Shown in pieces: positions 1,820 to 34,929 of a stretch of DNA of 64,000 nucleotides. The stretch is from assembly GCA_023481165.1 (NCBI GenBank), contig JAMCWO010000191.1, forward strand, positions 1,434 through 65,433, read 5' to 3'. Within the stretch, counting starts at the first letter, position 1; every line of letters starts with the position of its first letter. Position numbers and translations under genes: made by a program. The DNA is from Planctomycetota bacterium (lineage in GTDB: Bacteria > Planctomycetota > Phycisphaerae > Sedimentisphaerales > Anaerobacaceae). The notes beneath the pieces were generated by a model, which saw nothing but the letters and a program-made list of their open reading frames with translations, ran no database searches and was not told where the DNA came from.

Positions 1820-1849
1820 ACTCACACCTCCGAACACCCAAACAGTTGC

Positions 1850-1910: not shown

Positions 1911-2014
1911 GCCCCATTCCGGCATTTGCAGGAAAAATTCGCCTGGGGTAAGATGGTCCAGGTTGTGTTCGAGGAAAAAACTGTGCCGTGCGGCGTCTTT
2001 GGCAGAGGATCACG

Positions 2015-2428
2015 ATGAGCCAGGTGGAACGCATAGGGGTGTCGCTGGAAAAGGATCTGCTCGCCACGTTCGATGGGTTGATCGCCCGGCGGGGCTATCC
2101 GAGCCGGTCGGAGGCGATCCGCGATCTGATCCGCCAGCAAATCAGCGAGGAGCGCTTGAGCAATCCGAAAGCGACCGCGGTGGCGGCGGTCTTCCTGGTC
2201 TACAACCATCATGCGACGAAGCTGATGGAAGAGTTGGCCGGCTTGCAGCACTCGCACCTGCTTCAGACGATTTCTTCGATGCACATTCATCTGGATGAGC
2301 ACGACTGCCTGGAGGTGATCGTGCTGCGGGGGCCGGCGGGCGAGATCAAGAAGACCGCCGAGAACCTGATCAGCCTAAAGGGCGTCAAGCTCAGCCGCAT
2401 CAACCTCTTGACCACCGAGGCCACCTGA
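2015..2428 (+). CDS. nikR: nickel-responsive transcriptional regulator NikR
   Basis: MSQVERIGVSLEKDLLATFDGLIARRGYPSRSEAIRDLIR is a ribbon-helix-helix N-domain. The C-domain carries YNHH, LQHSH and MHIHLDEHDCLEV, matching the His/Cys nickel-site pattern of NikR. AGAGGA lies 7 nt before the ATG at 2015. Confidence 0.85.
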   Translation: MSQVERIGVSLEKDLLATFDGLIARRGYPSRSEAIRDLIRQQISEERLSNPKATAVAAVFLVYNHHATKLMEELAGLQHSHLLQTISSMHIHLDEHDCLEVIVLRGPAGEIKKTAENLISLKGVKLSRINLLTTEAT

Positions 2429-15016: not shown

Positions 15017-15093
15017 TGTAGGGGCAGGCCCCCGTGCCTGCCCTCTTGGCTTTGTGCCCGTCCCGGGAGGGCGACCACAGGGGGTCGCCCTAC
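15017..15093. repeat. double-hairpin palindromic element (TGTAGGGG...CCCTAC family), copy at the kinase ORF 3' end
   Basis: TGTAGGGGCAGGCCCCCGTGCCTGCCC ... GGGCGACCACAGGGGGTCGCCCTAC. The left arm differs by 1 nt from the copy at 19336. The kinase ORF stop codon (15090-15092) lies inside the right arm. Confidence 0.7.
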
Positions 15094-16928: not shown

Positions 16929-19900
16929 CTCACACCTTCCCTTCTGCCCGAAGGCAACAGACATTGTTGGAATCGTATTGACAGGTCTTTCTGCAGAGAA
17001 GACGAGTTCACAGTCGAAAGGCAGGTCGATGACGTGCCGCTGGCCGGCCGCTGCGTCGAACCACGAGTCGAACGCCGACCGGCCACTCGTGACGGCGGAC
17101 CACCGCTTCATATCAGCCTCGGCTCTGGCTCGTTCGTGCAGAGCGTCGTAGCACCGCGCCCGCACTAAGTAGGCGTGGGCGTCCCACGGGTCGGTCGCAA
17201 TGCGCTGGGTGTGCCGGGCCACCAGTTCTCGGAGGTGCTCGCCCACCGTTTGGGCGGGCCCCAGCGCCTCGACCGTTGTGACGGCGGGAGCAAGGTCCGC
17301 CGTCCAAATCTCGAAATACGGTGCACCCAGTTCAAAAACGAGTTTCGCCCCCTCCGTGGCCCACGAGCCTACCGTGATCGGACCACCCAGCGTCTGGGCA
17401 GGCTGATTCTGGCCCAGGCGATATACCCACAGTCCCGTCGGGTTTTCCAGACCGCCGCTGCCGCCCAGGCACAGTTCGTTACTGCCCGGAGACCAGGCCA
17501 ATGCGCCCCAGCCATCGGAGGGCGAAGGCAGAGGCCATCTGGCGATCAACGTCTGGGAGGCCAGGTCTATGACCTTCAGGGCTGTGCCCTCTAGGCAGGC
17601 CATGCGTTGATTGTCGGGCGACACCGACGGGTTCCATTGCGGACACGGAATGACCCGTTTCAGCTCGGGGTCTTCCCCTGCGATGGAGACGCAATAGAGC
17701 GTGCTGTCTGAACGCGATTTGTAGTAGACGCTGTTCGAATCCCGACCCCAGGAGGGCCAGACCCCGACAGCCAGACGCCGTGGCGCGGTCCCATCGTCAT
17801 TCATGAGCCAAACCTCTTCATCCGTGCTGCCGATGGGTTCGTTCTTCGCGTCCGCGGTAACGAATTCCGGGACGGGCAGGAACTGTCGATCCCGCACAAA
17901 AGCAATATGCCGCCCATCCGGCGACCACCGGGGGTACTTGCCGGGGACGATCAGCAGATCCGTTTTTCCCGTGCTAGGATCGAAGACGGCAATACCGCTA
18001 CGGCCCTGCACTCCCAGACTAAAGGCCAGCCTCTTGCCATCCGGCGACCACGCGGCACTAAAGCCGTCCGTAGTCAGCCGCCGGCCTTTGGCGGAGAGCA
18101 GGCGATGGGTCTCCTCCGCCTCCACCATCGGCAGAAAGGCCGCCCCTGCCGGCGCGGGACCTGCCGGATGCCAGGACTGTCCGGCCGTCAACGTGTCAAA
18201 GACATACTTGGCGCACCAGTTCCGGAACTTCTGTCGTGCCTCCTGGCCGGGGCTGATGAGCCGACGAAACAAGGCGGCAGCTTCGTCGTAGTCGCCCACC
18301 GCTGTCAGCGCGCCGAACAGGTGATTGTGTAGGACCGACACATCTTCCGCCCCCGGCTGGACCTCCGCGATGATGCGACCGTAATCCTTCATCCGCAGGA
18401 GCGTGTCGCAGCGTTGAACGGACAGTTCCACGTGTTGGGGGCTGTCCTCTGCCGTCAGTTCAATCGCTTTGTCATACTCGCCAATCGCCTCCTGGCAGCG
18501 GTCCAGCTCTCGGAGAGCGGTCGCACGCAGGGAGTGCGCGAGCGGATCAGAATCGCGCAACATCTCCATGGCACGTGCATCCTCGTTCATGCGGTCATAC
18601 TTCCGCGATGCGTACCAGGTATAAGCCCGCAGTCGGAGAGACTCGTAGTGCTTCGAGTTGAGCCGCAGGGCTTCCTCCAGTGCCTCCAGTTGCTCGTGCA
18701 CCGTGATGGCCATCATCGCCCGTAAGTAGAATGCCTCCGCCGTCTTCGGAAGCAGGGCCTCCGCCTTCTGACGGTACTCTTCGATCTGCTTGAACTTATC
18801 GGGGTTGAGTGGACCGCTCTCCCCAAGAATGCGGCCCCAGAGCAAATGGGCTGCCCCCGCAATGTCCGCGCGCTCGTTCACCAGGTCCTTCAGTACGCTC
18901 AGTGCCTCTGCGAAACGGCGGTCGTCCGCGAGAATCCTGGCGTAAAGAAGCTGGGCCTCGGGTCCCGCGTACCTATTCCGAAGGAGCGATTTGATCGTCT
19001 CCAAAGCCGCCTCTCGATCTCCATTGTCATATTGCCCACGAGCTTGGGACAGCGCGGCCTCCGCTAATTTCAAACGGTCTTGATTCCACGCCCAAAGGAT
19101 GATGCTTCCGGCGCCAACCACAACCACCATCATCAGGGCAGCGATGGCCTGCGCGCGGTGTCGCCGGAGGAACTTGGCCAGACGATAGGCTGGGCCGGGG
19201 CCGCGGGCCAGAACCGGCTCGTGCTCCAAATGCCGCCGCACGTCTTCGGCCAAACCGCTGACGGTCTCGTAGCGCCGGACACGGTCCTTCTCCAGGGACT
19301 TCATCACGATCCAGTCCAGATCGCCGCGGACCTCTTGTAGGGGCAGGCCCCCGTGTCTGCCCAACTTCGGGCGGCCACGGGGGGCCGCCCCTACAGGTCG
19401 CCGTTCCCGCGTGGCGGTTCGGATCCGGGTCGAGGGCTTGACCGGCTCCTGCTCTCGGATCACCCGCTGCATCTCGATGTAGCCAGCTTGGCGGAGTTCC
19501 TCTTCACTGAAGGGGGTCGTCCCGGTCAGCAGTTCATAGAGCAACACGCCCAGCGAGTAGATGTCCGAGCGGGTGTCGATGTCCAGATCGCTCAGTTCCG
19601 CCTGCTCCGGACTCATGTAGGCCGGGGTGCCGATGATATGAGCGTAACGAGTGAAGAGCGTCTTTTCGGTCAGCTTCTGGTTCGTGGCCTTAGCTATCCC
19701 GAAGTCGATCACCTTGGGGACGGGCTTACCATCATGGTGCGTAACCATCACATTGGAAGGTTTGAGATCGCGATGGATGATGCCCTTCTGATGGGCGTGC
19801 TGCACGGCGTTGCAGACCTGTAGGAATAATACCAGCCGGTCTTTCGTGCTCAGGCTGTTCTTGTCGCAGTACTCGGTGATCGAAACGCCCTGGACCAGCT

Positions 19901-20384
19901 CCATGACAAAGTAGGGCCGGCCGGTATCGGTCGCTCCGGCGTCGAGGACCTTGGCGATACAGGGATGGTCCATCAGGGCAAGAGCCTGCCGCTCCGCCTC
20001 GAACCGGGCGATGACCTGGCGGGTATCCATGCCCAGCTTGATGATCTTGAGAGCCACCTTGCGGCGGAGGGGCTCGGTCTGCTCGGCCAGGTAGACGACC
20101 GCCATGCCGCCTTCCCCGATCTTCTCCAGGAGTTTGTAGCGGCCGATGATTGTGCCGGGGCCTTCCGTAAGGACGGGCATATCCAGCACCAGGGCCGAGT
20201 CCCACGGGGCAGATTCCAGGAAGTTGTCCCTGACCTCGTGGGCCTTGAGCAGAACCCGGATGCGGGCCAACAGACCGGCATCCTGGCCGCAGGCCGCTTG
20301 GAGGTAGGCCTCCCGCTGAGCCGGGGCCTGGCCCAGAGCTTCGTAGTAGATCGCCTCTTCGTTGGTCTTGTGCTCCGTGGACAC
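15090..20384 (-). CDS. giant Ser/Thr protein kinase ORF: kinase, TM helix, TPR, TolB-like PD40 propeller, then signal-peptide-like segment, PD40 repeats, dockerin-like pair and F5/8 type C domain
   Basis: GTG start after AAAGGAG. Kinase motifs are GEGGMAVVYLA, VALK, HRDLKPSN, DFG and GTPAYMSPE. The TM helix is AIAALMMVVVVGAGSIILWAW. PD40-type repeats include WSPDGKRLAF and WSPDGRHIAF. The dockerin-like pair is DFNGDGKVDAKD and GDGIVDEKD. The discoidin-like C-terminus includes WIQYQFDKVYTLHELWVWN and AKYVKLTI. Confidence 0.85.
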   Translation of the reverse strand: MSTEHKTNEEAIYYEALGQAPAQREAYLQAACGQDAGLLARIRVLLKAHEVRDNFLESAPWDSALVLDMPVLTEGPGTIIGRYKLLEKIGEGGMAVVYLAEQTEPLRRKVALKIIKLGMDTRQVIARFEAERQALALMDHPCIAKVLDAGATDTGRPYFVMELVQGVSITEYCDKNSLSTKDRLVLFLQVCNAVQHAHQKGIIHRDLKPSNVMVTHHDGKPVPKVIDFGIAKATNQKLTEKTLFTRYAHIIGTPAYMSPEQAELSDLDIDTRSDIYSLGVLLYELLTGTTPFSEEELRQAGYIEMQRVIREQEPVKPSTRIRTATRERRPVGAAPRGRPKLGRHGGLPLQEVRGDLDWIVMKSLEKDRVRRYETVSGLAEDVRRHLEHEPVLARGPGPAYRLAKFLRRHRAQAIAALMMVVVVGAGSIILWAWNQDRLKLAEAALSQARGQYDNGDREAALETIKSLLRNRYAGPEAQLLYARILADDRRFAEALSVLKDLVNERADIAGAAHLLWGRILGESGPLNPDKFKQIEEYRQKAEALLPKTAEAFYLRAMMAITVHEQLEALEEALRLNSKHYESLRLRAYTWYASRKYDRMNEDARAMEMLRDSDPLAHSLRATALRELDRCQEAIGEYDKAIELTAEDSPQHVELSVQRCDTLLRMKDYGRIIAEVQPGAEDVSVLHNHLFGALTAVGDYDEAAALFRRLISPGQEARQKFRNWCAKYVFDTLTAGQSWHPAGPAPAGAAFLPMVEAEETHRLLSAKGRRLTTDGFSAAWSPDGKRLAFSLGVQGRSGIAVFDPSTGKTDLLIVPGKYPRWSPDGRHIAFVRDRQFLPVPEFVTADAKNEPIGSTDEEVWLMNDDGTAPRRLAVGVWPSWGRDSNSVYYKSRSDSTLYCVSIAGEDPELKRVIPCPQWNPSVSPDNQRMACLEGTALKVIDLASQTLIARWPLPSPSDGWGALAWSPGSNELCLGGSGGLENPTGLWVYRLGQNQPAQTLGGPITVGSWATEGAKLVFELGAPYFEIWTADLAPAVTTVEALGPAQTVGEHLRELVARHTQRIATDPWDAHAYLVRARCYDALHERARAEADMKRWSAVTSGRSAFDSWFDAAAGQRHVIDLPFDCELVFSAERPVNTIPTMSVAFGQKGRCEMKLFEIPTAGLSLLSLCFLAGLDAPPAHADFVFGTPANLGPTVNSASRDYNAILSPDGLELYFTSNRPEGYGGFDIWVTKRASVPDAWGPPANLGAQVNSPGWDATGSISADGLTLYFQRGNDLCSTTRATRDAPWGPAASLAPNIIIQGKDAQPIVSPDGLEFYFISIRPGGYGGWDIWVSKRATTSDAWGTPVNLGATVNSSLHDMCQWISPDALTLLIASNRPGGFGAWDTWITTRPSKTSVWGPPRNLGPTLNTNYSNCISSISPDGRWCYFDDFEGPCPGGVGGWDLWQAPIIPVMDFNGDGKVDAKDMSLLADNWGKNTSLCDIGPFAWGDGIVDEKDLGVLMESLVTPGPKASDVPCDVILSWISPSFAQACDLYFGTSLEVVSTASRTNPQGVLVSQGQTASTYDPAEPLKVSQTYYWRVDFVISGATPIKGPILKFTTAALTYPIKSITATASPSQVNMGPERTIDGSGLDKSDGHSTNGTDMWLSTTAPHWIQYQFDKVYTLHELWVWNSNQPIESFIGFGAQTVKIEYSTDGTTWTAVANVPEFAKATGKPGYTANTIVSFGGVSAKYVKLTIDKGWGSTPSAGLSEVRFFCIQSAAVPKP
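19336..19395. repeat. 60-nt double-hairpin palindromic element inserted in frame in the kinase ORF
   Basis: TGTAGGGGCAGGCCCCCGTGTCTGCCCAACTTCGGGCGGCCACGGGGGGCCGCCCCTACA. The termini TGTAGGGG/CCCCTACA are inverted repeats. It is translated as about 20 aa (PVGAAPRGRPKLGRHGGLPLQ) just before the conserved RGDLDWIVMKSLEKD segment. Confidence 0.75.
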
Positions 20385-23299: not shown

Positions 23300-24226
23300 T
23301 CAATAGTCGAAGAAAATCGCGTTTATCAGCGTGGCAAGGATGTCATAGAAAGCGTGGGTACCGGCCGTGATGCCGAAGCCCCGGATGGCAAACAGCAGGG
23401 CAAAGTAGATGCCGGCAATCGTGCGAAAGCCGAACTCCGTCCAATTGAAAGGAGCGCTGCGGGCCAGCCGGCCGTCAATCCAGATGATATGATGGTGCGC
23501 ACTGAACAGGGCCGCCGACATCAGGACCGATAGCGCAATGGCGTTCTGATGGCTCAGTCCGATCACATCCTGAAACAGCACCATCAGGGCACAGATCAGG
23601 ATCAGGCGAAAGACCAACTCTTCGTAGATTCCCGCCCCGACGCCGGTCACGACGTTCGCCAGGAGCGAATGAACCTTCGGGTGGGCCGCCTCTTGCTGCC
23701 CCAGGGCGGCCATGATCTGCTCCGGCGAGACGATCCGGGTGCTGGCGGCCATCTGCACCTGGGCCGGCGGCTGCATACTCTGGGGCCGGTTGAGATGATC
23801 GGGCCGCGTGCTCGGGCTGTTGGACAGCAGGCTCAGGACGATCAACGGCACGGCCAGCAGCACACATTCCAGCAGCATCGGGAGATAGTCGCTGAAGCAG
23901 AAGTACCACTGCTTCTTGGAGGCCACTTGCAGGCCGACCAGGATCACCACGACCACCAGAGGCGGCGCCACCCAGGCAAACCGGCTGCTCGTGCCCAGGT
24001 GCAGCAGCGCATCCTGGATCCAGACGAATGCCACCACGCGAAGCTGATACCGGGTCAGGAGATCCGTGTTGATCAGACTGGTGCCGATCTCGTAAAAAAT
24101 GAGGAACGGCAGCAGAAAGAGGATGGCATACACCGGGCGGCTGGTCCGCTCCAGGTAGGAGTCGCGCGCGAAATTGAGCAACTGACCCGTCGGGTAGTCG
24201 CGTGGCTCCTTCTTTTTCCGGCCCAT
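23300..24226 (-). CDS. CPBP-family intramembrane glutamic endopeptidase (CAAX protease/Abi-like)
   Basis: GIYEELVFRLIL (EExxxR), FSAHHH (FxxxH) and GTHAFYD (HxxxD) lie in a polytopic membrane protein. ATG at 24226. The track ORF starts at an upstream GTG (24259). Confidence 0.75.
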   Translation of the reverse strand: MGRKKKEPRDYPTGQLLNFARDSYLERTSRPVYAILFLLPFLIFYEIGTSLINTDLLTRYQLRVVAFVWIQDALLHLGTSSRFAWVAPPLVVVVILVGLQVASKKQWYFCFSDYLPMLLECVLLAVPLIVLSLLSNSPSTRPDHLNRPQSMQPPAQVQMAASTRIVSPEQIMAALGQQEAAHPKVHSLLANVVTGVGAGIYEELVFRLILICALMVLFQDVIGLSHQNAIALSVLMSAALFSAHHHIIWIDGRLARSAPFNWTEFGFRTIAGIYFALLFAIRGFGITAGTHAFYDILATLINAIFFDY

Positions 24227-24552
24227 CGTCGGCAAAGTAACACCTTCTGCGGCCTGCACTCCAAACCATCCCTGGATCCGTTACCGGTGGAATAGTCGGG
24301 AGTTTACCCCAGCCGCCGGGAAATTACAATAGCTTGTGGCCGTGAGCGAACCAGCGCCGATAAGATGCGCGTAGTACACAGTGGGATGGCGGCCGGGGAA
24401 CGATGTGCTCTGTTGGGTTTTGACATCCAAGTTCAGTAATCGAGGTCCACGGATGGCCGGGTGTCACGCCCAAGCGCAGCTTGAGCGTGTTCTCCGCATG
24501 CGAGGGAGCACGGTCAAACAAGTTTGGCCGTGCCACCCGGGAATTACCGAAG

Positions 24553-25369: not shown

Positions 25370-27670
25370 ATGTGTGCACGAGTGATTTGCCTGATAGCCT
25401 TCGCGTGCGGATTTGTCTCTTGTGGCTGGGCCCAGGATTACCTGGCGGTAGCTACTTATGGCGAGCGGCTGCCGGGATCGACCGAACAGGTCGGTTTGTG
25501 GTGGGCCTCATCCGGGTGGAAGGTCGGGCAGGACCGGGCGCTGCCGCAGACGAAAGGGGACGCGATTCTCATTCGGGCGGCGCAAAATGAGGCCGAAGCG
25601 GCCCAATTGGTGGTGCGGCCGGCAGCGGCCCTGAAGGGACTTGTCCTGGAGGCGGGGGTCTTGACCGGACCAGCCGGTGCGACAATACCCGGGCAGAACA
25701 TCGGTGTTCTGGAAGTGCGGTACGTCCACGTCACGCGGGCGACGGATAAGAGCACTACGCCGGGATATTGGCCCGATCCCCTGCCGCCGTTGAAGAAGGC
25801 TATTGATCTGGCGGCGGGCAAGAATCAACCCTTCTGGGTTCGGGTGAAGGTGCCGCGCGGGACACAGGCCGGCGTATACCAGGGGACGATCAGACTGAGG
25901 GCAGAAGGTTTCAAGGCGGCGGTGCCGCTGAAGGTCGAGGTCTATGACTTCGAGTTGCCGGACCGCATGACGTGCACGACGGCGTTCGGCTTCAGTCCGG
26001 ACAACGTCTGGCGCTACCAGGGGATCTCCGATCCACGCCGCCGGCATGAGGTCCTGGAGAAGTACTGGGCCAACTACAGCGCCCATCATATCTCGCCGTA
26101 CGATCCCGCGCCGCTCGAGCGAATCGAGGTGACGTGGCCCGACATCAAGCCGCCCAAGCCCAAATGGCAAGGCGGCCGGCCGGTGACCAATGAAGTGCAT
26201 GGCGGCGCGCGCAGCCTCCTGCTGTTCGACGACCGCAAGGATGCGAATGTGGAGGCGGTGTACGAGCCGCTCGTGCCGATCCCGGAGGGCGACCTGCGTC
26301 TGCGGTTCTGGTACCGCACCGCCGTGCCGGGCCAGACCTTTCTGGTCACGCTGAACCACTATGATGGTTCGGGCCGGTGGATCTCCGGCGCCAACAACGA
26401 CATCGGTCTCGAAGGCAGCGGGCACTGGCAGGAATTCGACCGCGTGCTCCGGAAGTTCCCCGCCGGGGCCAAGTCTGTGCAGCTTCACCTGCGGGCGGCG
26501 AACTGGAGCGAAAGCGGCGAGGCTACCGGATTGGTTTGGTTCGATGATATTTCACTGACGAACGCCGCGACCGGGCAGGAGTTGATTGAAGGCGGCACGT
26601 TCGAGCCGCCCGAGCTGCCGCCGGTCGAGCGGGACAAGCTCCAGGTGAAGCTCGATTTCACCGCCTGGGACAAGGCGATGGAACAAGGCATCGACTACTA
26701 TCATTTCAACTCCTTCCGCCTGGGAATTCTGGGCATGGGCGGCGGGACCTTCCATGCCCGCCAAGACCCGCAGTTGCTCGGCTTCGGAGAGGACACACCC
26801 TGCTACAAAGTGCTCTTCAACAGCTACTGCTCGCAACTGCAGGAGCACCTGCGGCAGAAGGGCTGGCTCGATGAGGCTTTCGTCTACTGGTTCGACGAGC
26901 CGGACCCGAAGGATTATCCCTTCGTCAGCAACGGCTTCGCCAAGCTCAAGGCGGCGGCGCCCGACATCCACCGCATGTTGACGGAGCAGGTCGAGCCGGG
27001 ACTGATCGGCGGCCCGAACATCTGGTGCCCCGTCTCCAATCAGTACCAGCCCGGGGCCGCCGAGGAGCGGCGCCAACAGGGCGAGAAGTTCTGGTGGTAC
27101 GTCTGCACGGGACCCAAGGCCCCCTACTGCACGCTGTTCATCGACCATCCGGGGACCGAGCTGCGCGTCTGGCTCTGGCAGACCTGGCAACGGAAGATCG
27201 CCGGCATCCTGGTCTGGGAGACGAACTACTGGACCAGCGGGGCGGCGTATCCCGACCGCGACCACCCGCAGAATCCCTACGAAGATCCGATGGGCTGGAC
27301 ATCGGGCTACAGCACGCCCGAGGGCCAGAAGCGGCCCTGGGGCAACGGCGATGGCCGGTTCGTCTATCCGCCGGTCGAGGCGGCCGATGGACGTCCAACT
27401 CAGCCGATTGTCGAAGGACCGGTGGACAGCATCCGCTGGGAGATGCTCCGGGATGGGATCGAAGATTACGAGTACTTCGTAATCCTGAAGAACCTGATTT
27501 CCGCCAAAGGCGACCGGCTCAGCGCCATCCATAAGGCCGAGTACACCGCCCTGCTCGACGTACCGGCGGAGGTCACGAAGGATATGACGACCTTCACCAA
27601 GGACCCGGCGGCGATCGAGCAGCATCGTGACCGCGTGGCCCGCGCGATCAGTGCGCTCCGCCAGCAGTAG
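25370..27670 (+). CDS. DUF4091 domain protein (putative glycoside-hydrolase-like), secreted/lipoprotein
   Basis: N-terminal signal with Cys. The C-terminal WWYVCTGP ... IRWEMLRDGIEDYEYF block is typical of DUF4091 proteins (assigned from memory). Confidence 0.7.
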   Translation: MCARVICLIAFACGFVSCGWAQDYLAVATYGERLPGSTEQVGLWWASSGWKVGQDRALPQTKGDAILIRAAQNEAEAAQLVVRPAAALKGLVLEAGVLTGPAGATIPGQNIGVLEVRYVHVTRATDKSTTPGYWPDPLPPLKKAIDLAAGKNQPFWVRVKVPRGTQAGVYQGTIRLRAEGFKAAVPLKVEVYDFELPDRMTCTTAFGFSPDNVWRYQGISDPRRRHEVLEKYWANYSAHHISPYDPAPLERIEVTWPDIKPPKPKWQGGRPVTNEVHGGARSLLLFDDRKDANVEAVYEPLVPIPEGDLRLRFWYRTAVPGQTFLVTLNHYDGSGRWISGANNDIGLEGSGHWQEFDRVLRKFPAGAKSVQLHLRAANWSESGEATGLVWFDDISLTNAATGQELIEGGTFEPPELPPVERDKLQVKLDFTAWDKAMEQGIDYYHFNSFRLGILGMGGGTFHARQDPQLLGFGEDTPCYKVLFNSYCSQLQEHLRQKGWLDEAFVYWFDEPDPKDYPFVSNGFAKLKAAAPDIHRMLTEQVEPGLIGGPNIWCPVSNQYQPGAAEERRQQGEKFWWYVCTGPKAPYCTLFIDHPGTELRVWLWQTWQRKIAGILVWETNYWTSGAAYPDRDHPQNPYEDPMGWTSGYSTPEGQKRPWGNGDGRFVYPPVEAADGRPTQPIVEGPVDSIRWEMLRDGIEDYEYFVILKNLISAKGDRLSAIHKAEYTALLDVPAEVTKDMTTFTKDPAAIEQHRDRVARAISALRQQ

Positions 27671-27726
27671 CATGGGCGTCCCGCCCATGCTACGAGTGAA
27701 CACCTGACGGCGTCACTACGAACACG

Positions 27727-29085
27727 TCACTTCGACGGAGGCGTCCAGTCCTGGGTGCGCGTGCCGTTGTAGGTGGTCAGCGTGTACTGGAACTTGCGCT
27801 CGGAGCGCGGTTGTAGGAGCAGGGTAAACTTGACCGTGTCCTGATCCACCCTCTCGAATTCCTCGATCTCGCCGGAGCGTCGGAGCGTCCAGTAGGTCGT
27901 CGGGAAGTTGCGCAGGATCTCCACCTTGACCGGAATATCGCGGGTGTTCTTGACCGTGATCTCGAAGGTCCGGATCTCGTCCCAGCCGGCGATGTTGCGA
28001 TTACGGTCGAAACGATAGTTGTCCGTCCGCACCTCCATCAACATCGGCTCGACCACAATGTCCGAGACTGCACCCAAGTTCAGCTCCACGTCCTCGTCCA
28101 CGGGAATGTACTTGAACGCCGACTGGCCGGCGTAGGACAGGTGCGCCTCAGCATCCGCGGCGCGGTAGACCTTGAGCACACCGCCCGGGATCGGGGTCCG
28201 GCCGAGCTTGTGCTCCTTGTCATTTTTGAAGCTCAGGAACCGCATGACGTTGGAGCGATAGCGCTCTTGTTCGTACTTGTACAGATTGGCCACCGGAATC
28301 TCGTCGATGTCGAAGCTCACGAGCCGTTTCGACCAGCCGTTGGGGATCGTCTCGGTCCCCTCGATCGTGTACAGGAAGTACTCGCTGAGACCCTCCTTCA
28401 CGATCTGCTTTGGTGCGGCGGGCGCCGCCACGGTAGGTGCGTCCTCCCTGGGCCAATTCCACCGCTCCATCTCCCTTTTGCCGGCTATGCCAGCCTTCCG
28501 CGAGGAGAGAGGCACCGCTTGACCCGGCCGACCGTAGGGATACTCGCGTCGGGCCAAGTCCGCGATCTGATCAAGAATGTGGACCTTACCGACGATCAGG
28601 CGGACCTGGGCGTTCTCGTAGTCCTCGCCGCTGTTGTTCGTCACGCGGACGTATGCCTGCAAGCGCATCATCTTCTCATCCGGCGCGAGCGTCCCCATGT
28701 AGAACGCCCGCCAGGTGAGACCGCTGGTGAGGTACGAGATCTCGACGGGGGTCTTGCCGCTGGCGGCGCTGCGAACGTTCCACAGACCCAGGTTCTTCAC
28801 CCGCGGCGGATAGACCAACTCGGCGATGTCAATCGTACCGGCGGCGCCCTTGGGCACCATTTCCAGACTGGTCGGGTCGATCAGCGTGTTTTCCCAGGAG
28901 AATTGCAGGGCGTTCTCGCCTTGCTTGACGGTCAACGCCCGGCTCTCCCGCACGAGGGTCATGTCGGCGGAGTTGTAGATCGTAAGCTGCACCGTGTCCC
29001 GCGGCGGCAAAGTGACCAGATCGACCTTGGCCTTGGCCCCCGGAGCGAGGAACGCGACCATAGACAAAAGGCAGAACCGTTTCAT
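27727..29085 (-). CDS. secreted DUF4139-like protein, paralogue 4
   Basis: The ATG at 29085 follows GGGAG. Signal peptide MKRFCLLSMVAFLAPGAKA. Long identical blocks are shared with 29253-30602 and with the C-domain of 32035-34095. Confidence 0.8.
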   Translation of the reverse strand: MKRFCLLSMVAFLAPGAKAKVDLVTLPPRDTVQLTIYNSADMTLVRESRALTVKQGENALQFSWENTLIDPTSLEMVPKGAAGTIDIAELVYPPRVKNLGLWNVRSAASGKTPVEISYLTSGLTWRAFYMGTLAPDEKMMRLQAYVRVTNNSGEDYENAQVRLIVGKVHILDQIADLARREYPYGRPGQAVPLSSRKAGIAGKREMERWNWPREDAPTVAAPAAPKQIVKEGLSEYFLYTIEGTETIPNGWSKRLVSFDIDEIPVANLYKYEQERYRSNVMRFLSFKNDKEHKLGRTPIPGGVLKVYRAADAEAHLSYAGQSAFKYIPVDEDVELNLGAVSDIVVEPMLMEVRTDNYRFDRNRNIAGWDEIRTFEITVKNTRDIPVKVEILRNFPTTYWTLRRSGEIEEFERVDQDTVKFTLLLQPRSERKFQYTLTTYNGTRTQDWTPPSK

Positions 29086-29119
29086 GTGCACTCCCATAAA
29101 AGAGACCTCCGTCGCCCCC

Positions 29120-29220
29120 TGTCATCCTGAACGGAGCGAAGCGCAGTGAAGGATCTGGGCCGCGGACCTGTGACACCTTCCATTCGCCGGCCAGATCCTT
29201 CGCTGCCGCTCAGGATGACA
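29120..29220. mobile_element. MITE-like palindromic element, family TGTCATCCTGA...TCAGGATGACA (copy A)
   Basis: 101 nt with terminal inverted repeats TGTCATCCTGAACG / CGCTCAGGATGACA and inner repeats GAAGGATCTGGGC / GCCAGATCCTTC. It lies between two paralogous genes. Confidence 0.65.
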
Positions 29221-29252
29221 AGACTGTGCACGGGGGTTTCTCCAAATCAACG

Positions 29253-30602
29253 TCATCGGGACTTCTTGCTCGGTTCCTGGGCCCGCACCCCGTGGTAGGT
29301 CGTCAGGGTATAGCCGAACACCTGCTTCGAGTGCGGCGACAATTCGACGGTGAACTTGACCGTGTCCAGATCGACCTTCTCGAAGCTGCCGACCTCATCG
29401 CTTCTCTTGAGGTCCCAGTTCGGGCCGGCGAAGTTGCGGGTGATCTCGACCTTGGCCGGCACCTCCCGCGTGTTGCGCACCTGGACGCTGAACACCTGAA
29501 TCTCATCCCAGCCGGAGATATTGCGGTTGTTGTCGAACCGGTAGTTGTCCGTCCGGGTCTCGATCAGGTTCGGCTCGACCACGACGTCGGCCACCGCCCC
29601 GAGATCAAGCTCCACAGCCTCATTGACCGGGATGTATTTGAACGAGGACCGGCCTTCATAAGAGAGATGCTTCTGTTCATCGGCGGACCGGTAGACGGTG
29701 AGGATGCCGTCGGGAATCGGCGTCTGGCCGAGCTTGTGGGCCTCGTCGTTCTTGAGGCTCAGGAAGCGCGTGACGCTCGAACCGTACCGCTCTTCTTCGA
29801 ACTTGTAGAGGTTGATCACCGGTACGCCGTCGATATCGAAGCTCAGCAGCCGCTTTGACCAGCCGTTGGGAATGGTCTCCGTGCCTTCGATCGTGTAGAG
29901 GAAGTATTCGCTCAGACCCTCCTTGACGATCTCCTTGGGCTTGGCGATGGCACTCTCAGCGAGGGCGCGAACCCTGCCAAGGGCCTTCTGCCGCTCCTCG
30001 ACCATGGGCGCCGGCAGCGCGAGCGGCCTGACCTCGCCCGGTCGGCCATAGGGATACTGCCGTTGGGCCAACTCCGCGATCTGGTCGAGAATATGGACCT
30101 TGCCGACGATGAGCCGAACCTGGGCGTTCTCGTAGTCCTCGCCGCTGTTGTTCGTCACGCGGACGTAGGCTTGGAGCCGCATCGTCTTCTCATCCTGCGT
30201 CAGGGTCCCCATGTAGAAGGCCCGCCAGGTGAGGCCGCTGGTCAGGTACGTGATCTCGACGGGGACCTTGCCGCTGACCTTGCTTTGGACGTTCCAAAGG
30301 CCAAGGTTCTTCACTCGCGGCGGATACACCAACTCGGAGATGTCGATCTGATCGGCGTTGGCCTTCGGCAGCATTTCCAAGCTCGTCGGGTCGATCAGGG
30401 TATTCTCCCAGGAGAACTGGAGGGCATTGGCCCCGGTCTTGAGCGTCAGGGCCCGGCTCTCGCGGGCGAGGGTCATATCGGCGGAATTGTAGATCGTAAG
30501 CTGAACCGTGTCGCGCGACGGCAAGGTGGTCAGGTCCACCTTCGCCTGCGCGACACCGGCAACTACCGTAAGCACTCCCAAGGATGAGATCAAACGCTTC
30601 AT
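29253..30602 (-). CDS. secreted DUF4139-like protein, paralogue 3
   Basis: The ATG at 30602 follows GGGAG. Signal peptide MKRLISSLGVLTVVAGVAQA. It is very similar to paralogue 4 except for a central segment. Confidence 0.8.
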   Translation of the reverse strand: MKRLISSLGVLTVVAGVAQAKVDLTTLPSRDTVQLTIYNSADMTLARESRALTLKTGANALQFSWENTLIDPTSLEMLPKANADQIDISELVYPPRVKNLGLWNVQSKVSGKVPVEITYLTSGLTWRAFYMGTLTQDEKTMRLQAYVRVTNNSGEDYENAQVRLIVGKVHILDQIAELAQRQYPYGRPGEVRPLALPAPMVEERQKALGRVRALAESAIAKPKEIVKEGLSEYFLYTIEGTETIPNGWSKRLLSFDIDGVPVINLYKFEEERYGSSVTRFLSLKNDEAHKLGQTPIPDGILTVYRSADEQKHLSYEGRSSFKYIPVNEAVELDLGAVADVVVEPNLIETRTDNYRFDNNRNISGWDEIQVFSVQVRNTREVPAKVEITRNFAGPNWDLKRSDEVGSFEKVDLDTVKFTVELSPHSKQVFGYTLTTYHGVRAQEPSKKSR

Positions 30603-30640
30603 TGGATAGCTCCCGTATTCGTTGATGACTCCGAAGGTCT

Positions 30641-30707
30641 TGTCACCCCCGCGAAGGCGGGGGTCCATCCGATAGATCTGGGGATTCCCGCCTTCGCGGG
30701 AATGACA
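30641..30707. repeat. double-hairpin element TGTCACCCCCGC...GCGGGAATGACA (copy 1)
   Basis: It contains CCCCCGCgaagGCGGGGG and TCCCGCcttcGCGGGA hairpins flanked by TGTCA/TGACA. It is related to the copy at 55138-55233. Confidence 0.65.
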
Positions 30708-30749
30708 CGGGGGCGGTGTTCAACCACCCCTTCATCGGCTCAGGGCCCC

Positions 30750-31895
30750 TTACGGCCGGACGTTGCGGCGGTGGTAGTGCATCGTCAATTCCTTCACCGC
30801 CGGGCCCTTTTCGGTCCGGGCAGGAAGCTCGATCTCGAATTTGAGCGTGCCGGCGTCCTTCTTCGTGTACTTCATGTTGCACTCTTCCATGTCCCACTGG
30901 CCGGGGATGTGCTGAATCATCGTCAACACGGCGGGGCTGTCCTTGAAGTTCTCGATCTTGGCCGTGATGACCTCGTCCGTGTCGTAGAGCACAACCTGCT
31001 CGGAATTGTTCCGGCGGATGCTGATCTGGGCCTCGCGCATCTTGCGTTGCGTGACCACGATGTCGCGGCTATCGCCGATGTACAGCTCCATCTTCTCGCC
31101 GACAGGCACCAGGGCCGCGTTGTCCTCGCCCAGGAAGATCGTGCCACCGTGGCCGTCCTGCTGGAAGATACGGGCCTTGCCGCCCCAGAGGGCGAAGCCG
31201 CCCAGGCCGCCGGCCTTGTTGTTGGTGATCTCGTAGCTGACGGGGATGCCGACATTCTGGTTTTCGAGCTTCGTCGGGTCCCAGGGCAACGTCGCGGCGT
31301 CGAACTTCCAGACCTTACGAATCGGGGCGTTCGGGTCGTTCAGGAACAGCATCTGCTTGGTCTCCTCGTGGCTGATGCCCTGCTCGAAGGCTTCGCCGTA
31401 ATCGAGGAGGATACGGGCCTTCGCAAAGTCCTCGCCGGAGAAGTTGCGCAGGACCAGGTAGCTCTTGAGGTCCACCAGCGTCTCGGGCTTATTGGCGACG
31501 GCCTTGTAGGTGATCAACCGGTCGATGTTGCTCAGGAGGTAACTGATGCGAACCGTCTCGGCGAAGTCGCCGCCGCTGCTGATCTCCCAGACCAGCGCTG
31601 ACTCGCCCGGCGGGTAGCTGACGCTCAACAGCGTTACATCCGCCGGATGTTCGAGCATCTGCAGGCGAATGGAATCCTCGTCGATCTGCACGCCCTTCCA
31701 CGAGAAGTCCACCTTGTTGAGACCCTTCTGCAGCGTCAGGACGCGCTCCTCCTCGATCAAAGTCGCGCTGGGATTATCCAGCCGGATCACCGTCGCCGCC
31801 CGCTCCGGCAGCGCCACGAGCTTGATGCGGGCCTGCGTCGTCGTGGCACACAGCAGAGTCAAGAAAGCAACCACCATAGCACGTTTTGCGTTCAT
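30750..31895 (-). CDS. secreted DUF4139-like protein, divergent paralogue 2
   Basis: The ATG at 31895 follows GGGAGA. Signal peptide MNAKRAMVVAFLTLLCATTTQA. It is collinear with the other paralogues but weakly similar (RIKLVALPERAATVIRLDNPSATLIEEERVLTLQKGLNKVDFSW; LRNFSGEDFAKARI). Confidence 0.7.
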   Translation of the reverse strand: MNAKRAMVVAFLTLLCATTTQARIKLVALPERAATVIRLDNPSATLIEEERVLTLQKGLNKVDFSWKGVQIDEDSIRLQMLEHPADVTLLSVSYPPGESALVWEISSGGDFAETVRISYLLSNIDRLITYKAVANKPETLVDLKSYLVLRNFSGEDFAKARILLDYGEAFEQGISHEETKQMLFLNDPNAPIRKVWKFDAATLPWDPTKLENQNVGIPVSYEITNNKAGGLGGFALWGGKARIFQQDGHGGTIFLGEDNAALVPVGEKMELYIGDSRDIVVTQRKMREAQISIRRNNSEQVVLYDTDEVITAKIENFKDSPAVLTMIQHIPGQWDMEECNMKYTKKDAGTLKFEIELPARTEKGPAVKELTMHYHRRNVRP

Positions 31896-31945
31896 ACGTA
31901 CATCTCCCAAAAACCAGTTCCCTGCCCTCAAATCGATCTATCGGC

Positions 31946-32023
31946 GGGTGCCATGCTTACGCTTGCGTAAGCATGTCTTCCCTATCGGATGAGCATGTCT
32001 ACGCAAGCGTAGACATGGCACCC
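31946..32023. repeat. 78-nt composite palindrome with two internal hairpins
   Basis: The hairpins are CATGCTTACGCttGCGTAAGCATG (31952-31975) and CATGTCTACGCaaGCGTAGACATG (31994-32017). They are nested in the outer inverted repeat GGGTGCCATG / CATGGCACCC. Confidence 0.7.
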
Positions 32024-32034
32024 AGTTCCAATGT

Positions 32035-34095
32035 TCATCTGCCAGGCGCCGCTTGCCGGCGAGCGCCGTGGTACATCGCCACCGTATACTCGAAGACCCG
32101 CTTGCTCTGCGGCTCAATCGTCAGTTTGAACCGAGCGTGGGTCGCGTCATACTTCTCGTAAGACACTTCCTTATCCGTCGACTTGAGCGTCCAATAGGGC
32201 GTCTCGAAGCCGCGGGTCACTTCTATGTCCACCGGCAGCGGACGAGTATTGGCGATTTCGATTTTCCAGGTCCGCACCTCGTCCCAGCCGGAGACATTGC
32301 CGTTGTTGTCGAACGTATGATTCTCCACCTGGTAGTCGATCAGGATGGGCTTGACTTCGACCAGCCGTGCCGGCCCGAGGTTCAGCTCGACCTCCTCGTT
32401 GACGGGAATGTACTTCACATTCATCGCCCCGACGTACAACAGATGGCCTTGCTCACCGGCTCGACCGTAGATGCGGACGGCGCCGTCCGGAATCGGCGTC
32501 TGGCCAAGCTTGTGCTTTTCGTCATTCGCGAAGGACAGGAACCGGATCGTCGCCGTGGCCCAGCGCTCTTCGTCGTATTTGTACAAGCTCGCCACCGGGA
32601 CGTCGTCAGCCTCGAAGGAAAGAAGCCTTTTGCCCCACTTATCGGGGATCGTCTCCGTCCCTTCAATCGTGTACAGGAAGTACTCACTGAGTCCCTCTTT
32701 GTGGATCACCCTAGGGGCCGCCTCGTAGACTCCGGCCCTTACACCATTCCTGATCGGCGAGCTACTATCCTTATCACGATCCACTCCCTCGAAACCCGTC
32801 GCGATGCTCTTGCCGATTGGCGACGGACTGTCGTAAGGATACTGACGCCTGGCCAGATCGGAGATCTGATCGAGGAGATGCACGCGACCAACTATAAGGC
32901 GGGTCTGCGCATCTTCGTAGTCCTCGCCGCTGCTGTTGCTGACTCGCACGTAGCCTGCCAAGTGCATGGTCCTCTCATCCGGCGAGAGCGTGCCCATGTA
33001 GAAGGCCCGCCAGGCCAAGCCACTGGTGAAGTAAGTCAATTCGAAAGGCACTTGGCCGTCGACCTCCGAACGAATGAGCCAACGGCCAAGTTCCCGTAGC
33101 CTCGGCGGAAAGACCAATTGCTGGACTTGCACGCCGTCTTCGTGTTCCAATGGCTCCAAAGCCAGCGAGGTCGGATCGATCAGCGTATTGGCCCACATGA
33201 ACTGGAGCCAGTTCCAGCCCCGCTTCAAGGTCAAGTTGCGCCGTTCGCGGACCAGCGTCAGATCGGCCCCGTTGTAGATCGTCAGTTGGACGTTCTCCCG
33301 GCGCGGCAGCACAACCAACTCGATGGCGCTGGCCGGAGCAAAGGGCGGCTGCTCGGCAACCTGTGCCGTCCGGGTGGCGTCCGGCACGTTTGTAGTGACG
33401 CCGTCGGGCGTTTGCGGATATGCCCTTACGGGCACACTACGAACCGGGCCTTCGGCCTTGATACTGGCGCCCGGCGCGGACGTGGGTTCCGGTGGGGCAA
33501 GCCGGGACCCCCAACGCGATTCATCGCGTTGGGGAGCCCGATCCACCCTACCGGCTGCCCCGGGTGTCGTGCCAGGCTGGGCGTCGGCCAGCGACGTCCT
33601 GAGCGACGAAGGTTTCGATGGCACCGTGGCCTCGGCTTGCCCTGCCTCCTGTGCCACGAGCGGCGCGGGCTGGTCTTTCCTGAAGGCGAACTCCTGATCC
33701 GCAGAGGCAGCAGGAGCGGCGTTCTGGGCCGATGGGCCAGGCGCTATTGTCGGCGCGATTCGATTGTCCTGGGGAAAATTGGAGACCAGCAACAGAGCTA
33801 CACCCACTATGACCGCCGCCGCAACTGCCCCCGCCGCAGGCAACCGGTACAGCCAGATTACCCTGGCGGGACGGGCTTGGGCGGCGTTCTCGACGGTCTT
33901 GGATAGAAGGTCTTTAGAGACTTCGATCTCCCCACGCAGCAAATCCAGCGTAGCGAACTTCCGCGCCAGCGTTTGCAGCTTCCGCCGACATTCCTCACAT
34001 TCATCCAGGTGGGCCTGGGCCGCGTTCCTAGCGGCCGCGTCGGCCAGCTTGAACTGGGAGTCGATCAACTGTTGTTCTGTCAGATGCTGGTTCAT
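32035..34095 (-). CDS. anti-sigma factor (zf-HC2) joined through a TM helix and a Pro/Ala linker to a DUF4139-like extracytoplasmic domain (paralogue 1)
   Basis: AHLDECEECRRKL (H-x3-C-x2-C) at aa 29-36. The TM helix is at aa 80-104 and a low-complexity linker runs to about aa 255. The following 430 aa domain is collinear with paralogues 2-4. The start overlaps the sigma stop (ATGA). Confidence 0.8.
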   Translation of the reverse strand: MNQHLTEQQLIDSQFKLADAAARNAAQAHLDECEECRRKLQTLARKFATLDLLRGEIEVSKDLLSKTVENAAQARPARVIWLYRLPAAGAVAAAVIVGVALLLVSNFPQDNRIAPTIAPGPSAQNAAPAASADQEFAFRKDQPAPLVAQEAGQAEATVPSKPSSLRTSLADAQPGTTPGAAGRVDRAPQRDESRWGSRLAPPEPTSAPGASIKAEGPVRSVPVRAYPQTPDGVTTNVPDATRTAQVAEQPPFAPASAIELVVLPRRENVQLTIYNGADLTLVRERRNLTLKRGWNWLQFMWANTLIDPTSLALEPLEHEDGVQVQQLVFPPRLRELGRWLIRSEVDGQVPFELTYFTSGLAWRAFYMGTLSPDERTMHLAGYVRVSNSSGEDYEDAQTRLIVGRVHLLDQISDLARRQYPYDSPSPIGKSIATGFEGVDRDKDSSSPIRNGVRAGVYEAAPRVIHKEGLSEYFLYTIEGTETIPDKWGKRLLSFEADDVPVASLYKYDEERWATATIRFLSFANDEKHKLGQTPIPDGAVRIYGRAGEQGHLLYVGAMNVKYIPVNEEVELNLGPARLVEVKPILIDYQVENHTFDNNGNVSGWDEVRTWKIEIANTRPLPVDIEVTRGFETPYWTLKSTDKEVSYEKYDATHARFKLTIEPQSKRVFEYTVAMYHGARRQAAPGR
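33509..33534. repeat. CCCCAACGC...GCGTTGGGG hairpin element (copy 1), inside the anti-sigma linker coding region
   Basis: CCCCAACGCGATtcATCGCGTTGGGG with GGGA/AGCCC flanks. It is translated as ..PQRDESRWGS.. Confidence 0.7.
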
Positions 34096-34676
34096 GGCGT
34101 CACGTCAACGGAATCCGGCAGTTTCCGGGCCAGTTTCGCCAAGGCCCGGGACATCTGGGTCTTCACAGAACCAACGGAGCAGCCCAGAGCCTCGGCGACT
34201 TCCGGGTAACTCAGTTGCTGGTAATAGGCGAGGACCAGAGCGGCCCGTTGCCCAAGCGGGAGTGATTCAATCGCCCGCCGGACCTGCTCCTTCTGCTCCT
34301 CTTTGACCGCCTCCTCCACCGGGTCCGGGGCATCTTGTGCGACGGCTGTCTCCAACAACGGAGGATCGTCCTCGCAGTCGGTGTCACGGTTCAGGGAGAG
34401 AAACGCAAGGCGTTTGCGCCGGCGGACGGTGTCGATAGTTACGCGCGTGGCGATGGTGAACAGCCAGCTTTTGAAGCTGCCGCCCCGGTAGCTGCGGGCC
34501 TTCTCGTGGACCCGTTGGAAGGTCTCCTGGAAAAGGTCTTCGGCCTGGTCTCGACTGCCCGTCATGCGGCACAAATACCCCAGCACGCCGTCCCCGTACC
34601 GGCGGACCAGCTCGCGAAACGCCGCCGGATCACCCCGCAGGTGAGCGGCGACTAAGCTCTCATCCAGACCTTCCAT
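34092..34676 (-). CDS. ECF (RpoE-like) sigma-70 family sigma factor
   Basis: Region 2 is AEDLFQETFQRVHEKARSYRGGSFKSWLFTIATRVTIDTVRRRKR. The region 4 HTH is LSYPEVAEALGCSVGSVKTQMSRAL. Confidence 0.9.
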   Translation of the reverse strand: MEGLDESLVAAHLRGDPAAFRELVRRYGDGVLGYLCRMTGSRDQAEDLFQETFQRVHEKARSYRGGSFKSWLFTIATRVTIDTVRRRKRLAFLSLNRDTDCEDDPPLLETAVAQDAPDPVEEAVKEEQKEQVRRAIESLPLGQRAALVLAYYQQLSYPEVAEALGCSVGSVKTQMSRALAKLARKLPDSVDVTP

Positions 34677-34699
34677 CGAGGCTACGACTCCAAAGGGCC

Positions 34700-34725
34700 C
34701 CCCAACGCATACTTCCGCGTTGGGG
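34700..34725. repeat. CCCCAACGC...GCGTTGGGG hairpin element (copy 2)
   Basis: CCCCAACGCatacttccGCGTTGGGG, 24 nt upstream of the sigma start codon. Confidence 0.7.
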
Positions 34726-34743
34726 ACCCCGGCTACTCCTTTA

Positions 34744-34770
34744 GACGAGCATCGTAGCGCTGGGGTTGAC
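34744..34770 (-). promoter_or_regulatory. candidate ECF-type autoregulated promoter
   Basis: The reverse strand reads GTCAAC-N17-CGTC, an AAC / CGT spacing like ECF promoters. It lies about 68 nt upstream of the sigma ATG. Confidence 0.25.
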
Positions 34771-34837
34771 AGCGATCAGGGCACAATCCGCAAGAACGGA
34801 ACTCGCGCTGCGAGAATCTCGCGGAACGAGCATAGGT

Positions 34838-34929
34838 CCCCTGCCTTCGCAGGGGCAGGCTCTATCAGTCCTATCCGTCCTATTCGTCTTATAGGACCCA
34901 TAGGACACATCGGACCGATAGGACCTATA
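34838..34929. repeat. stack of short palindromic repeats
   Basis: CCCCTGCcttcGCAGGGG hairpin (34838-34855), then two GTCCTAT units followed by three inverted ATAGGAC units (34868-34929). Confidence 0.6.

Follow-up and report, generated by a model that had tools for sequence, protein, structure and literature searches.

A DUF4139 anti-sigma factor encoded with an ECF sigma factor and predicted secreted DUF4139-superfamily proteins in a conserved planctomycete locus

Introduction

Pairs of an extracytoplasmic function (ECF) sigma factor and an anti-sigma factor are a major mode of bacterial signalling, and the sensor domain of the pair sets what is sensed. We consider one such pair from a planctomycete of the order Sedimentisphaerales, located in a stretch of 64,000 nucleotides (GenBank assembly GCA_023481165.1, contig JAMCWO010000191.1, positions 1,434 to 65,433) that we call the window and in whose own numbering all positions below are given. 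The extracytoplasmic part of its anti-sigma factor is a DUF4139 domain, and behind the pair, on the same strand, lie genes for three predicted secreted relatives of that domain, here called P3, P4 and P5.

A described system with the same ingredients exists in Pseudomonas aeruginosa, where the main known target of the ECF sigma factor SbrI (PA2896) and its anti-sigma factor SbrR (PA2895) is muiA, a gene of the DUF4139/TIGR02231 family (PMC10418997). The SbrI system is induced by osmotic shock, by D-cycloserine and by overproduction of CtpA, that is, by envelope stress (PMC10418997). The window resembles it in that an ECF sigma factor and its cognate anti-sigma factor are tied to a DUF4139-family protein, and differs from it in having a DUF4139 paralogue as the sensor itself, with two subfamilies encoded alongside. 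We know of no DUF4139 domain in SbrR, and muiA is presumably unlinked to sbrIR, judging by locus tags. The parallel suggests that DUF4139 proteins may be recurrent envelope-stress effectors under ECF control.

Other parts of the arrangement have their own counterparts. Anti-sigma factors of the RsiW type undergo regulated intramembrane proteolysis, and SigW/RsiW shares with the window the zinc-binding anti-sigma (ZAS) domain, the one transmembrane helix, the extracytoplasmic C-terminus and the coupling to an ECF sigma factor. The window anti-sigma factor differs in its DUF4139 domain of ~430 residues, carried on a disordered tether of ~145 residues, and in that no protease genes are linked to the window cluster, so that proteolysis is here an assumption. 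In the SigI/RsgI systems of Clostridium thermocellum, the extracellular sensor module of the anti-sigma factor has paralogues among the modules of the regulated proteins and shares their binding specificity. A sensor paralogous to the presumed output proteins is also what we see in the window; however, SigI is not an ECF sigma factor, the anti-sigma domain is a different one, the envelope is Gram-positive and the sensors are known carbohydrate-binding (CBM) or glycoside hydrolase (GH) modules, whereas the paralogues in the window are whole proteins of what is probably the same operon.

Two more systems bear on how such a sensor could be read out. For RseA/RseB and MucA/MucB, a soluble periplasmic protein encoded in the operon binds the periplasmic domain of the anti-sigma factor, whose proteolysis it controls. 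We propose feedback of this kind for P3 or P4, although neither RseB nor MucB is a paralogue of the periplasmic domain of its anti-sigma factor, and those domains are not DUF4139. For SigV/RsiV, signal peptidase makes the site-1 cut at a site of AxA type, to which ligand binding gives access. A junction in the window anti-sigma factor, APASA|IELV, resembles an AxA site and lines up with the position where signal peptidase would cut the free paralogues, but the RsiV site is near the membrane while the window junction is ~150 residues away from the transmembrane helix, where access by signal peptidase is doubtful.

Known in kind, then, are the ECF sigma factor, the ZAS anti-sigma factor and a sensor paralogous to output; new are the combination and the proposed P3/P4 logic. 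An earlier first-pass annotation, made by a model from the letters of the window, was aware of no description of the arrangement for this domain. For a DUF4139 anti-sigma factor this stands, since no description was found in the searchable literature, where mentions of DUF4139 are otherwise unrelated; the association of ECF sigma factors with DUF4139 has the precedent of SbrI/SbrR and muiA. Public annotations of the relatives of the fusion protein read "hypothetical" or "DUF4139 domain-containing".

Results

The five open reading frames reported by the first-pass annotation are all present and co-directional on the minus strand. The leading gene (34092-34676) encodes a sigma factor of 194 residues that consists of regions sigma2 and sigma4 only (Sigma70_r2, PF04542, E 3.8e-18; Sigma70_r4_2, PF08281, E 1.9e-18) and scores 108 bits against the sigma70-ECF model TIGR02937, whose cut-off is 42.9. 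It fits no named NCBIfam equivalog, as PRK12513 and SigW give 130 and 110 bits against cut-offs of ~206-209. Its stop codon overlaps the start codon of the next gene by 4 nucleotides (ATGA), as had been reported, and this overlap is retained in 54 of 73 related loci. These loci were retrieved by similarity to the protein encoded by that next gene, which we call the fusion protein.

The complete gene of the fusion protein occupies 32035-34095 on the minus strand and encodes 686 residues; the window is identical here to a protein from a Planctomycetes metagenome-assembled genome (MAG; locus tag M1376_13080). From the N-terminus, the protein has a cytoplasmic domain (residues 1-75; 33871-34095), a single transmembrane helix (residues 82-104; 33784-33852) formed by the hydrophobic stretch LPAAGAVAAAVIVGVALLLV, a periplasmic linker (residues 105-247; 33355-33783), a short junction (residues 248-257; 33325-33354) and a DUF4139 ectodomain (residues 258-686, with the stop codon; 32035-33324). 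The helix, the linker and the ectodomain agree with what had been read from the sequence before.

The assignment of the cytoplasmic domain to zf-HC2 (PF13490) needs the family to support it. The motif that had been pointed out is there (H29-x3-C33-x2-C36), and the window protein taken singly stays below the Pfam threshold of 22.2 bits, with 13.9 bits and E 0.061. Among the members of the fusion family, 35 of 46 match zf-HC2 at E <= 0.1 (best 4.1e-5), and H29, C33 and C36 are each conserved in at least 90% of the sequences. The family profile, searched against the Protein Data Bank (PDB), finds RsiW as its best match (5wuq_C, E 0.029, which is weak), with RslA further down (3hug_B, E 0.93). The motif lies in an N-terminal domain that is helical in the AlphaFold2 (AF2) model, with a predicted local distance difference test (pLDDT) score of 78-88, and the gene is directly downstream of, and coupled to, that of the ECF sigma factor, which its product is predicted to bind and inhibit. 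Because of the family matches to zf-HC2, the RsiW and RslA matches, the helical N-terminus and the ATGA coupling, we accept the 686-residue protein as a class-I, ZAS-motif, single-pass anti-sigma factor. A hydrophobic segment at about residues 78-95, equivalent to the transmembrane stretch of the window, is found in 29 of 30 fusion representatives. One representative (P0263, 640 residues) has lost H-x3-C-x2-C and keeps the N-terminal domain, the transmembrane helix and the DUF4139 ectodomain.

The ectodomain belongs with P4 and P5. All three pass the gathering score of PF13598 (31.8): the anti-sigma factor with 39.9 bits (E 5e-10), P4 (29253-30602, minus strand, 449 residues) with 51.5 bits (E 1.3e-13) and P5 (27727-29085, minus strand, 452 residues) with 53.6 bits (E 3.2e-14). 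The same model matches all 46 members of the fusion family. By BLASTP, the ectodomain is 54% identical to P4 and 52% to P5, and P4 and P5 are 70% identical to each other, in keeping with the two very similar copies and one divergent copy described earlier; the shared sequence blocks quoted at that time are likewise present in the proteins. The suggested resemblance to DUF4139/DUF4140 proteins of the MuiA kind holds at the level of PF13598 for these three proteins and not for P3, and TIGR02231 (cut-off 112.6 bits) is reached by none of the four: the anti-sigma factor scores 24.7 bits, P4 32.4 and P5 42.2, and P3 gives no match. The window proteins are relatives of the MuiA family, not members.

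Each of the three free proteins has a Sec signal peptide of the usual n-h-c type, which upholds the earlier call and predicts secretion. As read from the sequence, these signal peptides end AQA|K, AKA|K or TQA|R (for P4, ...AQA|KVDL), and the first conserved strand begins right after the AxA site. An insert of ~80 residues (...LDQI..LA...KEGLSEYFLYTIEGT) is common to the P4-type proteins and the ectodomain and is absent from P3-type proteins. The motif N-x-S-G-E-D/N is kept in both types.

P3 (30750-31895, minus strand, 381 residues, without the central insert) requires a separate argument. It has no match to PF13598, and its only hit, to DUF4140 (E 0.034), scores 15 bits where 27 are needed. 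Nevertheless it is homologous over its full length, with BLASTP E values of ~1e-17 and an hhalign comparison with the fusion family that gives a probability of 99% and E 7.6e-18 over 337 columns. We conclude from these alignments that P3 is a divergent member of the DUF4139 superfamily, lying outside the current Pfam model. The homology of the ectodomain with all three downstream proteins, which the first-pass annotation had assumed, is thus supported by BLASTP and hhalign together. Its description of three free copies of the sensor domain fits P4 and P5, which are of the sensor type, and fails for P3, which belongs to a distinct, ancient, insert-less subfamily.

Between the membrane and the ectodomain, two neighbouring segments behave in opposite ways. 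The Pro/Ala-rich linker is disordered (pLDDT <50 over residues 74-249 of the AF2 model) and hypervariable in length and sequence among orthologues, the whole protein ranging from 596 to 822 residues. The junction that follows it, EQPPFAPASA before IELVVLP in the window, is invariant or nearly so: E[QK]PPFAPASA directly precedes IELV(V/T)LPRR in all 44 aligned fusion proteins. Its ASA| end falls, in the alignment, where P4 and P5 have their signal-peptidase sites AQA| and AKA|. Because this strictly conserved segment is absent from the mature free proteins, it suggests a role specific to the fusion, and we hypothesise a cleavage site, a hinge or a docking element.

The next question is whether the arrangement is kept in related genomes. 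A scan of species-representative genomes yielded 79 loci and at least 577 stretches that match. Nearly all carry the label Phycisphaerae, Sedimentisphaerales or Planctomycetota; one series of MAGs is labelled "Pirellulales", which looks like a default set by the submitter. Among the carriers is a cultured isolate, Anaerohalosphaeraceae bacterium U12dextr (locus L077). The fusion protein has matches over 99-100% of its length in more than 120 clusters formed at 90% identity. According to the survey by open reading frames and BLAST, the sigma gene adjoins the anti-sigma gene in 68 of the 70 loci with enough upstream sequence, and all 45 loci that extend 6 kb or more downstream contain a P3-type gene together with at least one free P4-type gene. 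The most frequent layouts are A-3-F-F, seen in 20 loci, and A-3-F, seen in 13, where A is the anti-sigma factor, 3 a P3-type and F a free P4-type gene; free P4-type copies number one in 16 loci, two in 21, three in six and four in two. Three long contigs, with fusions 57-77% identical to that of the window, show the identical five-gene order and the same flanks. The synteny survey that had been proposed for this locus therefore finds a strongly conserved layout.

Some loci carry additional secreted genes between the anti-sigma factor and P3 (L037:9895-11496, L058:9987-11423 and L015:9176-10126), with three CarboxypepD_reg domains, a weak thioredoxin-like C-terminus or DUF2330 as the types of gene inserted. 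These genes are variable and absent from the window, and we do not count them as core members.

Within the loci, P3 is the best conserved component. Its orthologues are 81-96% identical, against 55-79% for the fusion proteins of the same contigs, and in 53 of 53 loci it is better conserved than the sigma factor, the ectodomain and the free copy (medians of 62, 67, 77 and 70% for sigma factor, ectodomain, P3 and free copy). Relatives make up 3216 clusters at 50% identity among the 1.8 billion representatives searched. Among the best 150 of these 50%-identity representatives, ~30 are fusions with one and the same N-terminus throughout, and the remainder are free proteins of ~440 residues that bear a signal peptide. 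We examined the genomic context of six distant free forms (30-37% identity). A P3-type gene of 375-401 codons adjoins the P4-type gene in five of the six, often with a 4-nt overlap, and no sigma or anti-sigma gene is near the P4-type gene in any of them.

A neighbour-joining tree, computed with no support values, groups the P3-types of the outgroup with the P3 clade, places the ectodomains in approximately one clade that is sister to the free P4-type copies of Phycisphaerae, and puts the P4/P5 duplication inside the subclade of the window. In this tree P3 is a distinct and ancient subfamily and P4 and P5 are a lineage-specific duplication, and the ectodomain is a P4-type duplicate that was fused to an anti-sigma factor in a single event. 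Given the distant P3/P4 pairs without a sigma factor, together with the tree, we therefore take the P3/P4 pair to be old and the sigma and anti-sigma genes to have been added later.

Some neighbours of the distant pairs are worth recording; in the sample, lpx genes occur once and thioredoxin-like genes twice. In one lineage (L083, 1-5984) the pair lies directly downstream of lpxD, lpxC/fabZ and lpxA, genes of lipid A synthesis, and upstream of a gene for an 887-residue HEAT-repeat protein; as a single case, its lipid A context hints at an outer-membrane connection. Another P4/P3 pair (L092) is followed by a protein with a weak Thioredoxin_4 match.

We turn to the control of the locus. Alignment of the upstream regions reveals a T-GTCAACC-N16-CGTCT footprint ahead of the sigma gene in 66 of 74 related loci, ~55 nt before its ATG, with a spacer of 16 nt in 63 of the 66. 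The copy in the window (34744-34770, minus strand) is the sole exact match to the motif across the 64 kb. ECF promoters typically carry AAC in the -35 element and CGT in the -10 element. From its conservation and this signature, we predict GTCAACC-N16-CGTC to be a promoter, one apparently of the autoregulated ECF type (AAC at -35, CGT at -10, upstream of the sigma gene). The distance to the ATG in the window is ~94 nt, whereas it is ~55 nt in the relatives, because a hairpin (repeat I8, 34695-34730) is inserted in the sigma leader. The text of the ECF classification paper mentions neither DUF4139 nor this motif.

No further promoter of this kind serves the downstream genes, as far as the motif can tell. 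It is not found on the coding strand ahead of P3, P4 or P5 in any surveyed locus, and copies with two mismatches occur in the window at the level of chance (32 against 24.8 expected), none of them intergenic within the cluster. Sigma-dependent promoters of their own for P3, P4 and P5 are therefore rejected, there being no exact or conserved copies. The first-pass annotation had given each downstream gene its own Shine-Dalgarno sequence; these are present (GGGAG or GGAG), and separate sigma-dependent promoters to go with them were not seen. Scans of the window for generic sigma-70 promoters and terminators stayed at chance level.

The promoter region has some features of its own. The promoter spacer is itself conserved (window 34751-34759, consensus GGGCTACGAT) and holds a TAnnAT element, a perfect TATAAT in a few loci, which could be an overlapping housekeeping -10 or the site of a second regulator. 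Between the stop codon of the ThuA-like gene upstream and the sigma promoter there is a 9-nt periodic repeat array (34862-34929), with GTCCTAT(N2) about four times and then the inverted ATAGGAC(N2) about three times. It is unique in the window by Tandem Repeats Finder (TRF), and similar arrays stand at the same position in ~10 of the 73 related loci, with a density of 3.7 per kb there and 0.10 per kb in the rest of those loci; the array could be a terminator or an array of regulator-binding sites. One locus (L065) has a second GTCAACC-N16-CGTC copy at 1553-1579, between the ThuA-like gene and the sigma gene and ~235 nt upstream of an inserted gene (1788-3764) for a secreted protein of 658 residues, a candidate for an additional regulon member in this lineage.

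Because a single conserved promoter precedes the sigma gene and the gaps in relatives are short, the genes from the sigma factor through the paralogues are probably co-transcribed as one autoregulated operon. The gap between anti-sigma and P3 genes is mostly <70 nt in relatives and sometimes -4, and that from P3 to the next gene has a median of ~40 nt. The spacers of the window are longer (139-167 nt) and are filled by long GC-rich palindromes that few relatives have: repeat I1, with arms of 30 nt, between the anti-sigma factor and P3 (31946-32023), repeat I4 between P3 and P4 (30641-30707) and repeat I5 between P4 and P5 (29143-29206). They look like genome-specific insertions resembling repetitive extragenic palindromes (REP) or miniature inverted-repeat transposable elements (MITE), and they might modulate transcript processing. 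Structured RNAs in these spacers were considered and rejected, as Rfam returns only a spurious sub-threshold match to mir-214 on one of the palindromes and the spacers are absent from relatives. A perfect hairpin with a 12-bp stem (repeat I6, 27667-27693), which has no T-tract, lies between the convergent P5 and GH123 genes and is likely the end of the transcription unit.

Structure prediction adds little to function. The AF2 monomer models are moderate (mean pLDDT 56 and 69); that of the ectodomain is all-beta and multi-sandwich, with the central insert poorly predicted. A sequence search of the PDB with P5 gave no match, and the profile of the fusion family met PDB entries over its RsiW-like N-terminus only. 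For both models the top Foldseek match is 8agb_E (P3, E 6.6e-5, probability 0.97; fusion, E 3.5e-3), a chain that we take to be Ost1/ribophorin I from chain lengths, and the superposition has TM-scores of 0.11-0.18 and a root-mean-square deviation >22 A. Local sandwich matches include 6qfs_B (probability 0.99, TMt 0.53) and 8oye_A (probability 1.0 over 107 columns). We do not use these matches (Ost1/ribophorin-like, mu-homology, CBM-like and M1-aminopeptidase N-domain) as a guide to function, as they are weak and generic, with TM <0.3.

As for the surroundings, the ThuA-like flank is syntenic in 34 loci, the promoter lying between it and the sigma gene, and the GH123 flank in 21. A functional link to either was rejected for this limited synteny, and both are treated as neighbours. 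A gene for a CPBP/Rce1-like intramembrane protease (23300-24259, minus strand) lies 3.5 kb downstream; since just two other loci share this synteny, a part in processing of the anti-sigma factor is improbable. Further away, at 15090-20384 (minus strand), there is a gene for a protein of 1764 residues with a Ser/Thr kinase domain, PD40 beta-propeller repeats and an F5/8 type C domain.

Discussion

The reading that we prefer, with a rough probability of 0.5, is that the tethered P4-type domain reports the state of a periplasmic P3/P4 system that is controlled by its own sigma factor. The sigma factor would be held at the membrane by the class-I ZAS anti-sigma factor, and one transcript would encode sigma factor, anti-sigma factor, a P3-type protein and one to four P4-type proteins. 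After secretion, P3 and P4 may form a complex, and the tethered domain would serve as a surrogate subunit that engages the partner of free P4. This partner is most plausibly P3, or else an envelope structure or ligand bound by the P3/P4 pair. When the partner is depleted, occupied or altered, the anti-sigma factor would be destabilised, probably by regulated proteolysis, with the PPFAPASA|IELV junction as a candidate cleavage or docking element. The released sigma factor would transcribe its own operon, P3 and P4 would be replenished and the feedback loop would close. Oligomerisation, a decoy role or partner exchange in the periplasm, all raised by the first-pass annotation, are plausible forms of such contact. 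A more specific version has the tethered ectodomain standing in for P4 in the P3/P4 complex and measuring its assembly; when P3 (or the structure that it decorates) is unavailable, the signal-peptidase-like junction, inherited from a free ancestor, would be exposed and cut and the operon induced. This version we regard as doubtful and put forward only tentatively.

Several observations weigh against the preferred reading. Since the related loci were collected through the fusion protein, their conservation is conditional on its presence. The contacts between the proteins are proposed, and the monomer models are of only moderate pLDDT. Each spacer in the window holds a strong palindrome that might terminate or process the transcript. 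The number of P4-type copies varies from one to four, with extra copies or unrelated secreted genes lying between the anti-sigma factor and P3 in some loci, and this argues against a strictly stoichiometric complex. The tree has exceptions, with one fusion (L066) among the free copies and also three freed copies. The conserved ZAS motif, finally, could mean a cytoplasmic thiol or zinc input.

The alternative that survives best dispenses with contact between paralogues: the tethered and free proteins would have one ligand in common, an envelope or extracellular molecule such as a glycan, and the tethered copy would signal that this ligand is present and induce free copies that act on it or sequester it. 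The clostridial SigI/RsgI systems follow this scheme. The architecture expected is the same as in the preferred model, the variable number of free copies fits effector dosage, and on its long disordered tether the domain could extend well away from the inner membrane. A glycan would also suit a neighbourhood rich in glycoside hydrolases (GH123, GH2) and a C-terminal beta-sandwich that locally matches carbohydrate-binding and chitinase sandwich domains (6qfs_B, 8oye_A). The fold matches are, however, weak and generic (for the fusion model all at E > 1e-3, with TM 0.1-0.5), and GH123 is convergent, is present in only 21 loci and looks like a neighbour. The 81-96% conservation of P3 and the ancient, translationally coupled P3/P4 pair fit a complex better than they fit fast-diverging substrate binders. 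Sensing of a shared ligand is thus possible, if on balance unlikely.

A switch on the cytoplasmic side would place the input at the ZAS motif, through thiol oxidation or zinc loss at H-x3-C-x2-C in the manner of RsrA, and would leave the ectodomain as merely an anchored structural subunit of P3/P4. Near-invariance of the motif (at least 90%) and the zf-HC2 matches in 35 of 46 members are what such a switch would predict, but P0263 keeps the architecture without the Cys motif, and many membrane ZAS anti-sigma factors, RsiW among them, are known to be under proteolytic and not redox control. The invariant junction and the conserved ectodomain clade indicate, moreover, selection on the periplasmic part, and we consider the cytoplasmic switch improbable.

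That there is no functional coupling at all, the sigma pair regulating genes elsewhere and the DUF4139 genes being independent leftovers of tandem duplication, is very improbable: strong palindromes in every window spacer and unrelated genes between the anti-sigma factor and P3 in some loci would agree with it, but the order is kept in 45 of 45 loci with sigma identities down to ~44%, the gaps in most relatives (-4 to 40 nt) are often too short for separate promoters, and no other promoter copy was found.

Conclusions

The tethered copy, its proposed P3 partner, one to four free copies and one sharp promoter together offer a testable handle on the widespread, uncharacterised DUF4139 family. 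If the more specific version, in which the ectodomain stands in for P4, is true, the locus would be a self-monitoring circuit in which a subunit of the regulated complex is fused to the anti-sigma factor, and it would give the first functional entry into the DUF4139/MuiA superfamily, which extends to eukaryotes.

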